From contig JAZKJC010000002.1 in NCBI GenBank assembly GCA_040384565.1, positions 1,064 to 65,063 of the forward strand: a stretch of 64,000 nucleotides of DNA, given 5' to 3'. Of this stretch, positions 41,215 through 44,039 are shown in pieces. This stretch comes from Patescibacteria group bacterium. Its GTDB lineage: Bacteria; Patescibacteriota; Saccharimonadia; Saccharimonadales; JAZKJC01. The position numbers and the translations under genes are program-made. The notes beneath the pieces are model-generated. The model saw only the letters and a program-made list of their open reading frames with translations. It made no database searches and had not been told where the DNA came from. How positions within the stretch are numbered: position 1 is the first letter of the stretch; each line of letters starts with the position of its first letter.

Positions 41215-41866
41215 CGGTCTGACCTCCACCTGGCGCTACAAGCACCGGGAACACATCCAGCAAATTTTCAATCACCACAAAATTGTTTTGCTTAACCGTA
41301 TTTGCTTCGTTACTTACCAAGTCCACCGCTGGAAGACCAATGGCCTCTGCCACACCCTCGACACCACCGTTTAATGCAACCTGACAGAGAATGTTAAAGC
41401 GCTCCATGATACCAAGTCCATTGACTATGCCAGGATATGCGGTAATCACACCTAATGGATATGTACCGCTCCGAAGCCTGCTTTTAATCCGTGCTATTTC
41501 TGCCGTTTCAGGCGCTATCAAAGCTATTCTACCCATACGTTTTTGCGTCATTTTGCCCATGACAGTGGTAGTTCTGCGCTGATTACAAGCATATTCCATA
41601 CACCATTCACTGCCAGTTAGACCAACGACACCATCCATTTCAGCACCTGCAAGTTCAACCACTTGCGGCACGTCACGGCCACGAACCCACCAATACGTTC
41701 GGCCGTTGGATTCGACTTTTGCCTTTCGGTCGTCCTGCTTAGGTATTTCTTCTCCTATAAGCTCCTGAAAGGCAGCTACGAACACTTTTTGATAGCGATT
41801 AGGTACGAATACTTGTTTTGCCTCATCAGCCACTTCTGCTACTGCAATATTGTTTAAATTTTTCAT
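41201..41866 (-). CDS. hisG: Short-form ATP phosphoribosyltransferase-like protein (divergent)
   Basis: ..WVRGRDVPQVVE.. and ..GGVEGVAEAIGLPAVDLVSNEANTVKQNNF.. align by eye to short HisG, but the [ST]-G-x-T-[LM] loop is not conserved. The ATG at 41866 has an AGGAGA SD. Confidence 0.55.
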   Translation of the reverse strand: MKNLNNIAVAEVADEAKQVFVPNRYQKVFVAAFQELIGEEIPKQDDRKAKVESNGRTYWWVRGRDVPQVVELAGAEMDGVVGLTGSEWCMEYACNQRRTTTVMGKMTQKRMGRIALIAPETAEIARIKSRLRSGTYPLGVITAYPGIVNGLGIMERFNILCQVALNGGVEGVAEAIGLPAVDLVSNEANTVKQNNFVVIENLLDVFPVLVAPGGGQTDENI

Positions 41867-41890
41867 TTCATTTCTCCTAAACAAATTAAT

Positions 41891-41925
41891 TAACAAACAA
41901 AAACGCCAGCTTGGTGCTGGCGTTT
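41891..41925 (-). terminator. Rho-independent terminator between the yerC-like gene and the hisG-like gene
   Basis: AAACGCCAGC-TTGGT-GCTGGCGTTT, a 10-bp perfect stem, followed on the minus strand by UUGUUUGUU. Confidence 0.6.
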
Positions 41926-41947
41926 GTTATTTGAAATAAATAACTAG

Positions 41948-42280
41948 TTAGACAGCACGTGCTGGCGGGATATGATTGTGGTGAGTTGATAGTTTAGTCA
42001 AAACGGGTTCGTAGCCACCACAGCCGTTTTGCATCCAATCACTTATCCTGGCAACTGTGCGGCTACTCAGCTTTGTTTTGGCCACAATTTCGATATATTT
42101 ACTGCCTGTTTTCAGCATCCGGGCAGCTTCTAACCGGGCGCTAACTTCAATGATTTCTTTCTCTGTCATAACGTCACGCAAAAAGTTTTGCATATCAGAG
42201 CCTGAGTTAATAGACAGCAGAGCCTCAACTAGTTGCTGGGCGGATTCAGATTGCCAAATTGTGGTCTTGCTATCAGACAT
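41948..42280 (-). CDS. TrpR-like YerC/YecD-family DNA-binding protein
   Basis: ..FLRDVMTEKEIIEVSARLEAARML..G.SY.EI..KT.LS..TVARIS.W...G.GGY is the family pattern. ATG at 42280. Confidence 0.7.
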   Translation of the reverse strand: MSDSKTTIWQSESAQQLVEALLSINSGSDMQNFLRDVMTEKEIIEVSARLEAARMLKTGSKYIEIVAKTKLSSRTVARISDWMQNGCGGYEPVLTKLSTHHNHIPPARAV

Positions 42281-42287
42281 ACCCAGT

Positions 42288-42316
42288 ACTTTACCAAAGT
42301 AAAGTGTTTTTGTCAA
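42288..42316 (-). promoter_or_regulatory. Promoter TTGACA-17-TAAAGT, 7 nt before the ATG (leaderless-type)
   Basis: Read directly on the minus strand. Confidence 0.55.
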
Positions 42317-42393
42317 CAGTTAATTTTTATTACATTATTTTTATTTCTTGCTGGTGTCCTACTTCATTTCCGCATTTGGGCAACTTACTGTAA

Positions 42394-42696
42394 TTAGGCG
42401 ATGTTGCCTCTACTTTCGCGGCTGTGCCAGACACGGATTATTACGACCGTATCCCCGTCTGCATACATATATCTCAGCACATAGGCTCCTGCGCCGTAGG
42501 CCATAAACAGCTCACGCCTGCCAGTTTCATCTGGCATTGGACGACCTAGCCTGGGCGTAGTTTTAAGTAATTCCACTCCGCGCAAGATAGTTTCCGCAGC
42601 CCTATTAGCTGATGCGGGACTTTTGCCGTTTAAAAATGCATAAAGTCGTTCAACGCCACTAACAGCTTCTGGCAACCATCTAAGGGGCCTACCCAT
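42394..42696 (-). CDS. parE: ParE/RelE-family toxin
   Basis: 100 aa, ..WLPEAVSGVERLYAFL.. ..VVIIRVWHSRE.. Typical of a plasmid-stabilisation toxin. Confidence 0.75.
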   Translation of the reverse strand: MGRPLRWLPEAVSGVERLYAFLNGKSPASANRAAETILRGVELLKTTPRLGRPMPDETGRRELFMAYGAGAYVLRYMYADGDTVVIIRVWHSRESRGNIA

Positions 42697-42843
42697 GATA
42701 ACCTTTCAAGATAGAGGAGATGATCTTCGAGTTAAAACTGCTTATGGAGAAAGAAGCATACCTTTGGTACGTTGGACTGAGACAGAAGTAGTTTTGGCCG
42801 GAAAGGGCTGGTCTAGTTTGGGAGGTTATTATGGGTAGGACCC
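42684..42843 (-). promoter_or_regulatory. 21-nt inverted repeat (42684-42704 / 42823-42843, 19/21) bracketing the antitoxin-toxin spacer. The proximal arm covers the parE SD and ATG
   Basis: rc(42684-42704) is AGGTTATCATGGGTAGGCCCC; 42823-42843 is AGGTTATTATGGGTAGGACCC. Confidence 0.6.
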
Positions 42844-42845
42844 TT

Positions 42846-43118
42846 TCAATGTGGGGCACGGTTTGATGCCTTGCCACTCGCGAGCCCCTCAAGCCACCGC
42901 TCTACTTTATCGCCATCTATCGCGTTACCAGTAAGAACGTAGTGTTCCCAGCGCTCTAGATCTTCACTCTTTTCCTGCTCGTAGCGTTCTTCGCGCTCCA
43001 AATAATCTTCTACAGCCGTCCGCATCAGCCAATGAGGTGAACGTTTACGCTTCGCGCCCAAAGCCTTAAGCCGACTCTGAGTTTGATCATCCAATTTGAT
43101 ACCCTGCGTTGTAGCCAT
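42846..43118 (-). CDS. Ribbon-helix-helix (CopG/ParD-like) antitoxin
   Basis: MATTQGIKLDDQTQSRLKALGAKRKRSPHWLMRTAVEDYL.. RHH pattern upstream of parE. Confidence 0.7.
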   Translation of the reverse strand: MATTQGIKLDDQTQSRLKALGAKRKRSPHWLMRTAVEDYLEREERYEQEKSEDLERWEHYVLTGNAIDGDKVERWLEGLASGKASNRAPH

Positions 43119-43124
43119 AAAATT

Positions 43125-43153
43125 ATGGTAGCACTAGGTGCAACCTTTTACAA
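43125..43153 (-). promoter_or_regulatory. Promoter TTGTAA-17-TACCAT, 6 nt before the antitoxin ATG (leaderless-type)
   Basis: Read directly. A small GCAC-TAG-GTGC palindrome sits in the spacer. Confidence 0.4.
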
Positions 43154-43212
43154 CCACTACATAAACCTAAAATACCAGAGGCAAGAATTAATAACAGCGG
43201 CAGCTAAAGCTA

Positions 43213-43221
43213 TGTTAAAAT
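43213..43221 (+). promoter_or_regulatory. Extended -10 TGTTAAAAT, 6 nt before the ATG at 43228
   Basis: Read directly. Confidence 0.4.
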
Positions 43222-43227
43222 ATTTCT

Positions 43228-43464
43228 ATGGCTAAAGATAATAATTACGTTGGCGTATTGCTGGAAGATATCGAATCAAAATTGAAAGGTATTGCTGAAG
43301 CGGTTGCCGATTTAAACAAGAAAGCTATTCAAGCAGACCAAAGACTAAATAAAATTGAAGAAAACACCAACCTGATTCCAGCTGTTCAAGCAGCAATTAA
43401 AGACCAGACCAAACAGCTTAATACTCAAGGATTGCGAATCGCAGACCTAGAAACAGCCCGGTAA
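43228..43464 (+). CDS. Hypothetical 78-aa coiled-coil-like protein
   Basis: ORF track. Heptad-like charged/hydrophobic pattern. Confidence 0.45.
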   Translation: MAKDNNYVGVLLEDIESKLKGIAEAVADLNKKAIQADQRLNKIEENTNLIPAVQAAIKDQTKQLNTQGLRIADLETAR

Positions 43465-43700
43465 CGGTAGTGAGGGGGTAATTAGGCCAGGCTTCATTGC
43501 TCTAGAACTCCGCGCTTAGGTGCTAACTATGGTTCGGTACAGCATGGTTAACTGGATTTGCTAAGTTTTCATATGCAAAAATTGATTGCGGCCGACTGGC
43601 AGGCTATTCAAGAATTTATTGACCGCAACGTGAATCTGCTAAAATACCTGAGCTGGCCAAGAAAGTAATCTTGCTGCGGTCAGCCACAACTCTCAACTAA

Positions 43701-44039
43701 ATGAATAACAAAACTAAATTTTTTGATTCAAGATTAAAGTGGCTATTAACCGCATTAGCTGTCAACATCGTTTTATTTATTTGGCTACAAACAACTTCTG
43801 GCCATTCAAGTGCCGTTTGTAGTCCAACCCTTGCAAGTAATCTCCATATATTCTTTGTAGTCTTAATGATGGGCTTAACTTCGTCATACTGGTTTGTAAG
43901 GTTTATATTTTGGCCAAACGGCCCAAAAAATCAGCTGTCTTATAAATTAGGTTGGATAATGGGAGCTTTTATAGGTTTGTTTTTTGCAGGCGTATTATAT
44001 TTTGGCCTTGGAATTATTGCGTGGGGAACATGCTTCTAA
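43701..44039 (+). CDS. Hypothetical membrane protein (112 aa)
   Basis: Three or four hydrophobic helices. Confidence 0.45.
   Translation: MNNKTKFFDSRLKWLLTALAVNIVLFIWLQTTSGHSSAVCSPTLASNLHIFFVVLMMGLTSSYWFVRFIFWPNGPKNQLSYKLGWIMGAFIGLFFAGVLYFGLGIIAWGTCF

Follow-up and report, generated by a model that had tools for sequence, protein, structure and literature searches.

In canonical type II toxin–antitoxin operons of the RHH-ParE (ParDE-like) kind, the gene for a ribbon-helix-helix (RHH) antitoxin and the gene for the ParE toxin that follows it share a 13-nt or 4-nt overlap. Here, we describe an RHH-ParE pair from a Patescibacteria metagenome-assembled genome (contig JAZKJC010000002.1), located in the 64-kb stretch of DNA that was analysed as a whole (hereafter the window, whose numbering is used throughout). 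The pair has the same protein families and gene order as the canonical operons, its antitoxin is unchanged and its toxin keeps the conserved residues, but a 149-nt structured spacer stands in place of the overlap, and the start codon and N-terminus of the toxin are both new. That the spacer is inserted DNA is well supported by comparison with homologous loci. We further consider it probable that the insert is a palindromic element, resembling a MITE (miniature inverted-repeat transposable element) or a foldback, which entered the RHH-ParE junction in this lineage, and that the RNA helix predicted over the toxin start is a by-product of the palindrome and not a conserved regulatory design.

Two groups of described systems resemble this locus. 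In MS2 (coat to replicase/lysis) and in rpmI-rplT, neighbouring cistrons are translationally coupled by a helix in which the downstream ribosome-binding site is sequestered. Among toxin–antitoxin modules, a short upstream open reading frame (ORF; minigene) near the toxin start modulates toxin translation in axe-txe (PMC8708949), and translational coupling has been discussed for ccdAB (PMC9555053). The likeness of the present junction to these systems is that a downstream start is base-paired to the end of the upstream cistron or to sequence close by, and might need upstream translation in order to open. However, those coupling helices are conserved and experimentally verified, whereas the helix here is predicted, is found at a single locus, is born of an insertion and has its 5' arm after the upstream stop.

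The second group consists of small palindromic elements. The Rickettsia palindromic elements (RPE, ~100–150 bp), said to have been described by Ogata et al. in 2000, reportedly insert inside protein-coding genes without destroying them. RPE are read in frame as an extra peptide, whereas the insert here is out of frame (166 nt), severs the old start and donates a new one. The Correia repeat-enclosed elements (CREE) of Neisseria, to which the ERIC/IRU elements of enterobacteria are a similar case, are like the insert in being non-coding and ~100–160 bp long, with imperfect terminal inverted repeats; they are co-transcribed with neighbouring genes as long RNA hairpins that alter the expression of the adjacent gene, as would be expected of the insert. 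CREE and ERIC are multi-copy families with a defined consensus, and CREE also show a TA target duplication and outward promoters; in contrast, the insert is single copy, is similar to nothing searched, and has neither a clean duplication nor a promoter-like site. RNase III binds CREE hairpins and is able to cleave them (PMC2649163). The insert is best viewed as a known kind of event in an unusual position, namely the insertion of a small palindrome that would influence the gene beside it. In a limited literature search, no description of a comparable insertion at a toxin–antitoxin stop/start junction came up, nor any paper treating MITEs in Patescibacteria.

The antitoxin–toxin junction and its homologues

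Both genes lie on the minus strand, with the antitoxin upstream of the toxin. The features of the junction are:

43118..42846, minus strand: RHH (CopG/PutA-type ribbon-helix-helix) antitoxin gene, 90 aa, an ORF with its TGA stop at 42848..42846

42696..42394, minus strand: parE toxin gene in its present form, 100 aa, recognized by Pfam PF05016 (ParE_toxin)

42682..42845, strand not applicable: imperfect palindromic insert, 164 nt, delimited by its inverted repeat, by self-alignment, by the lack of any aligning homologue and by an excision test

42812..42845, minus strand: 5' arm of the predicted RNA hairpin, the terminal inverted repeat beside the antitoxin, including the 21-mer 42823–42843

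42682..42715, minus strand: 3' arm of the predicted RNA hairpin, the terminal inverted repeat beside the toxin, containing the AAGG, the parE ATG, codons 2–5 and the 21-mer 42684–42704

42846..42859, minus strand: vestigial ancestral toxin start, GTG (42859..42857) followed by CCC CAC ATT, recognized from junction sequences, a MAFFT alignment and the excision test

The antitoxin matches the Pfam families RHH_1 and PutA_1st, both over the cut-off, and the toxin matches PF05016 with E = 1.3e-13 and 51.7 bits (cut-off 23). Between the two genes lies a gap of 149 nt (42697..42845). A first-pass annotation of the window had called this gap unusual, on the grounds that toxin–antitoxin pairs normally abut, and both statements are borne out by the family. 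For comparison, 80 loci with this ParE subfamily were taken from species-representative genomes, many of them of Saccharibacteria or Patescibacteria, and an RHH antitoxin homologue was detected upstream of ParE in 74 of the 80 by tblastn. The antitoxin stop and the toxin start were located locus by locus; 71 genome loci were measurable and, with 3 metagenome loci, made up a set of 74. The genes overlap by 13 nt in 40 of the 71 loci and by 4 nt in 22, the widest gap being +12 nt. In the three ParE homologues that are closest, all from metagenome assemblies, the junctions measure +2, –13 and –13 nt. The 149-nt spacer is absent from all 74 loci, which belong to distant relatives (ParE identity 71% or less) and not to sister strains.

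As a separate observation on this family, a second, partial ParE-like match lies a few kb from the main pair in two of the loci (L015, 373–573; L067, 2084–2176). These matches could be duplicated or decaying toxin copies.

The spacer is bounded by an inverted repeat. A 21-nt pair at 42684–42704 (minus strand) and 42823–42843 (plus strand) had been annotated previously, and its positions proved exact, although the arms are in fact longer. The 21-mer has no other match in the window even at 3 mismatches (0 expected from 100 shuffles), and no further hairpin element of this kind was found there. The reported complementarity of 19/21 also stands, but its exceptions do not: on the minus strand, which is the mRNA strand, the two non-Watson–Crick positions are U·C and A·C, and the G·U that had been listed together with an A·C appears only in an RNA taken from the plus strand. 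The full arms span 34 nt each (42682–42715 and 42812–42845) and are complementary at 28 of 34 positions (82%), differing at 6. The 96 nt between the arms is weakly self-complementary, with 25 of 1000 shuffles reaching the same self-alignment score, and the 149-nt spacer together with the first five parE codons forms a single 164-nt imperfect palindrome. The 34-nt arm starts 1 nt past the antitoxin stop, and the 21-mer within it 2 nt past the stop. At 42831–42842 the plus strand reads ATGGGTAGGACC, in agreement with the earlier remark that the upstream arm is effectively an inverted copy of the 5' end of the toxin gene.

Mirror symmetry also gives the antitoxin-side arm (42823–42866, plus strand) an outward-facing GGGAGG, followed after 6 nt by ATG GGT AGG ACC CTT... 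This outward ATG opens an 11-codon ORF antisense to the 3' end of the antitoxin gene, and its Shine–Dalgarno (SD) motif is stronger than the present one of parE.

The position of the spacer relative to the ancestral junction was examined by alignment and by virtual excision. The family stop/start overlap motif, ccGTGyccnaaRTAR, is still found at the antitoxin stop of the window (ccGTGCCCCACATTGA). In the MAFFT alignment of the junctions, homology runs up to "...aaaccgtgccccaca", is followed by more than 160 nt that align to nothing, and is resumed from "tagatggttgcc"; the two breakpoints lie within 1–2 nt of the ends of the inverted repeat. Compared with the family, the junction has a net surplus of 166 nt (42682..42847 or, equivalently, 42683..42848). 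Removal of these 166 nt in silico gives a 99-aa toxin beginning MPHIRWLPEA from the old GTG, of consensus length and pattern, and restores a 14-nt stop/start overlap; the antitoxin sequence comes out identical, ending in ...NRAPH with a TAG stop. This virtual excision is strong evidence that a formerly canonical junction received the spacer as an insertion and that parE now takes its ATG and SD motif from the inserted DNA. The upstream arm resembles an inverted toxin 5' end because the toxin 5' end is itself the terminal repeat of the insert. A practical lesson from this is that an "inverted copy of a gene's 5' end" may reflect a 5' end that lies inside the terminal repeat of an element.

The ancestral GTG is no longer joined to the toxin body and lies in a different frame. 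The N-terminus of the present ParE, MGRPL, is encoded by the insert, and family homology restarts at R6-W7. Compared with the family consensus Mxx[VIL][KR]WLPEA, the start of the window protein (MGRPLRWLPEA) has one additional residue and differs in the first four. The new start site consists of an ATG (42696..42694) with an SD-like AAGG (42705..42702) at 5-nt spacing, almost exactly at the family start position. Downstream, all 23 invariant and all 18 near-invariant family residues are kept, with no frameshift and no stop, a pattern compatible with continued expression of ParE.

By this comparison, the insertion left the antitoxin protein as it was but displaced the toxin start: the palindromic insert in the stop/start overlap separated the ancestral GTG (42859) from the remainder of the toxin gene, and the toxin ORF now opens at an ATG with a weak AAGG motif inside the terminal repeat of the insert. 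The complement of this new start site therefore lies at the far end of the palindrome, 2 nt past the antitoxin stop.

The 3' end of the antitoxin gene (42846–42875) shows a further feature: the family motif AAACCGTGCCCC is kept, and the antitoxin frame differs through a +2 and then a +1 shift. The antitoxin tail accordingly reads ...SNRAPH, compared with ...PCPK or ...KWPK in the family, while the toxin-frame reading M-P-x-I is preserved. This pattern suggests that the overlap was constrained by the toxin frame and not by the antitoxin tail.

Predicted RNA structure and translation of parE

The minus-strand RNA from 42870 to 42660 (211 nt) was predicted to fold the whole spacer into one long hairpin, with a minimum free energy (MFE) of –59.2 kcal/mol and z = –4.08; none of 200 shuffles was as stable. 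The arm duplex alone gives –36.7 kcal/mol, and the 164-nt hairpin alone –48.3 kcal/mol. The SD-like AAGG, the AUG and codons 2–5 of parE all fall within the predicted helix, being paired in both the MFE and the centroid structures, and the helix survives in the MFE structure of the full 811-nt bicistronic RNA. In prefix folds, the 5' arm is mainly unpaired until the 3' arm has been transcribed, whereupon the 28 pairs of the 34-nt arms form. The helix over the parE start for which the first-pass annotation had called for a folding check is thus strongly predicted.

The accessibility of the start site was compared with that in the homologues. The mean unpaired probability from –15 to +5 of the parE start is 0.25, compared with 0.40 for the family median. 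Opening –18 to +12 would require 17.2 kcal/mol, against 14.4 ± 4.7 kcal/mol (maximum 25.8) in the homologues and 11.4 kcal/mol (maximum 22.7) in those of similar G+C. Both measures lie inside the family range, and exceptional occlusion of the ribosome-binding site was rejected; according to the model, occlusion of the start site is real but not extreme. The homologues carry a structured toxin start inside the antitoxin ORF, where translating ribosomes would continuously open it, whereas the start here lies 149 nt past the antitoxin stop.

On a bicistronic mRNA, the insert would fold as a single long hairpin in which the new ribosome-binding site is paired. Coupling by direct overlap would be lost, and ParE synthesis would be lowered relative to that of the antitoxin. 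The insert probably lowers toxin translation, and it may keep toxin translation dependent on upstream translation, since any residual ParE synthesis would still draw on ribosomes that have translated upstream sequence. Two routes can be envisaged. Ribosomes terminating at the antitoxin UGA might fray the base of the helix. Judging from the size of the ribosome footprint, a ribosome paused at this UGA would cover approximately the first 10–12 nt of the 5' arm; this could free parE codons 2–5, but not the SD motif or the entire AUG, and would at best destabilize the helix. In the second route, ribosomes starting at the vestigial GTG would read a bridging ORF through the hairpin:

42859..42689, minus strand: bridging ORF, 56 codons plus stop, from the vestigial GTG through the whole insert to a UAG at 42691..42689

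The stop of this ORF overlaps the parE start as AUGGGUAG, on which such ribosomes would terminate after unwinding both arms. The ORF is kept here as a possibility and was rejected as significant evidence, the same frame being open in 11% of shuffled inserts. A +1 frameshift joining the bridging ORF to ParE at GGG-UAG was also considered and set aside, as no supporting motif spacing is present.

Other RNA-level features of the spacer were sought. A search of 41800–43800 against Rfam 15 gave nothing in the spacer at E ≤ 1, and a search of the whole window at the gathering thresholds returned tRNA only, so a known RNA family was rejected. No promoter-like site was found within the insert (42682–42845). 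Terminator-like matches in the insert comprise two weak 6-bp stems on opposite strands (plus, 42794–42811; minus, 42771–42757, the latter followed by CUUCUUUCUC), compared with 1.1 expected from shuffles. With the stems at shuffle level and no U-tract after the main hairpin, an internal promoter or intrinsic terminator was rejected.

Origin and possible function of the insert

The insert has several traits of MITE-type elements: its terminal inverted repeats coincide with the insertion boundaries, it is 164 nt long and it has no transposase coding capacity; its ORFs are orphans without domains. Mobility itself is put forward as a hypothesis. Other identities were set aside on anatomical grounds. 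An integron attC site was rejected on reading the sequence, as the arms lack the R''/R' core motifs (RYYYAAC / GTTRRRY). Elements of the IS200/IS605 type (PATE) have subterminal hairpins and not long, mutually complementary termini, and this assignment was also rejected. An assembly artefact was judged unlikely because artefactual foldbacks are usually perfect, while the arms here are imperfect (82%); the insert also lies in the middle of an 86-kb contig.

Several results weigh against an inserted element that attenuates parE. No second copy was found by blastn in the window or in 80–83 related loci, by scans for the 21-mer of the terminal repeat in IMG/VR and JGI metagenomes, by distant blastn of the insert against plasmids and phages, or by protein-level searches with both spacer ORFs (5.8 billion proteins; JGI metagenomes). 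A repeated element is accordingly unsupported, every copy search having been negative. The net length of 166 nt (164 + 2) would fit a 2-bp duplication, yet the flanks read GA and AG, and inspection by eye of TA, TNA, GA and 5-bp options gave no clean target-site duplication. The ancestral junction is reconstructed and not observed: among 215 ParE homologues the nearest non-self protein is 69% identical, and a close relative carrying an empty site is lacking. A contig-index look-up with the window's own ParE and antitoxin for population variants or an empty-site allele returned no record. Attenuation is inferred, and the opening cost of 17.2 kcal/mol is only ~0.6 s.d. over the family mean. The bridging ORF, which could serve a residual supply of toxin, is matched in openness by 11% of shuffled inserts.

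A regulatory role was the reading of the first-pass annotation. The long-range helix would act as a translational lock under selection, ParE could be produced only once the helix had been melted by a ribosome that terminates on the antitoxin ORF, and toxin output would thereby be kept at or below antitoxin output. A strong helix over the SD motif and the AUG, with its 5' arm right after the antitoxin stop, is what such a lock would look like. ParE is also intact although the arms differ at 6 of 34 positions, which, if the arms were once identical, would suggest selection on ParE since the insertion; this argument is weak because MITE termini are often imperfect from the outset. The same annotation had proposed a search for the inverted-repeat architecture in homologous ParE/RHH loci and had stated that the lack of comparable pairing there would refute a lock. 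No comparable pairing was found in any of 75 homologues, in which complementarity to the toxin start region averages 12.4/21 and reaches 16/21 at best, against 19/21 here, and the spacer is missing throughout the 74 loci. A palindromic insertion already explains the helix, with no arm having evolved to match parE; the terminating ribosome would not reach the SD motif; the opening energy is inside the family range; and the helix is known from a single sequence. Absence from relatives leaves room for a local function, and hence the earlier interpretation as a whole is partly supported: the helix is predicted and stands beside the antitoxin stop, but it is not conserved, and its role as a structural coupling device is not supported. 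As a selected lock, we regard it as unlikely. A variant in which the insert was co-opted, the hairpin locking a ParE start that the insert itself donated and ParE being made only by way of the GTG, the bridging ORF and re-initiation at AUGGGUAG, is a rather long shot; if true, it would be a newly evolved, insertion-built device setting the toxin-to-antitoxin ratio.

At the other extreme, the insertion may have silenced the toxin. The ATG in the hairpin would then not be used to any meaningful extent, and the locus would consist of an antitoxin and a toxin that was disabled recently and is still undecayed. An insertion that reduces toxin output is the kind of damage that a toxin–antitoxin pair tolerates, and at this locus the ancestral start is severed and out of frame, while the new SD motif (AAGG) is weak and paired. 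Set against this are the retention of every invariant and near-invariant residue of ParE in an unbroken frame and the placing of an ATG, with an SD-like motif at 5-nt spacing, almost exactly where the family starts its toxin. We consider silencing improbable. If ParE is not made, the locus is an ordinary early stage of toxin decay. If ParE is still made, it is a natural experiment on the degree of translational coupling and of toxin-to-antitoxin ratio control that such modules require, and would also exemplify a small palindromic insert that has brought new post-transcriptional control to a Patescibacterium with a reduced genome. In either case, it is a single-locus curiosity and not a new class of system. 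It shows how a toxin–antitoxin operon can come through an insertion into the stop/start overlap, where it is most sensitive, with the antitoxin untouched and the toxin re-started from a codon in the terminal repeat of the insert and automatically wrapped in a hairpin.

The origin of the palindrome could also be non-mobile. A one-off inverted duplication, a template switch or a capture of foreign DNA during repair, involving no transposable element family, would account for the lack of other copies in the collections searched and of a visible target-site duplication. However, neither half of the palindrome resembles the ancestral local sequence, the family has no spacer that could have been duplicated, and the ends of the inverted repeat match the insertion boundaries, as expected of an element bounded by terminal inverted repeats. 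Such an origin therefore appears very unlikely, and a palindromic MITE-like or foldback insert is the reading that we retain. The spacer contains one annotated gene:

42695..42838, plus strand: antisense 47-aa ORF inside the insert, GenBank hypothetical protein V4702_00775

A real 47-aa protein encoded here, with the inverted repeat as an incidental feature, would be consistent with the ATG, the upstream AAGGGG and the GenBank annotation. The ATG shares a CATG tetranucleotide with the parE ATG on the opposite strand. The only match to this protein among 5.8 billion proteins is itself, leaving it an orphan, and it has no Pfam match. Moreover, about one in ten shuffled inserts is open in a given frame, and palindromes tend to be open on both strands together. 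The ORF is probably a spurious gene call, and we attach almost no probability to the inverted repeat being incidental to a genuine gene.

Neighbouring features

A gene for a TrpR/YerC-like repressor (41948–42316, minus strand; Pfam Trp_repressor, E = 7e-14) lies between the toxin–antitoxin pair and hisG-hisD. Between this gene and hisG there is a hairpin with 26-nt arms (AAACGCCAGC...GCTGGCGTTT) at 41885–41941. It coincides with a sub-threshold Rfam match to "freshwater-2 RNA" (29.1 bits, with the gathering score at 49.9; minus-strand matches 41864–41943), and could represent a terminator or the leader of the his operon.

On the other side of the pair, a 22-nt inverted repeat (77%) at 43112–43133 and 43213–43234 extends across the region from which the antitoxin gene (start at 43118, minus strand) and a plus-strand gene at 43228 diverge. 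Both genes open with ATGGCTA, and each 22-nt arm thus holds a start codon. The antitoxin ATG is covered by a short palindrome, CCATAA-AA-TTATGG (43115–43128), which could be an operator for the RHH protein.

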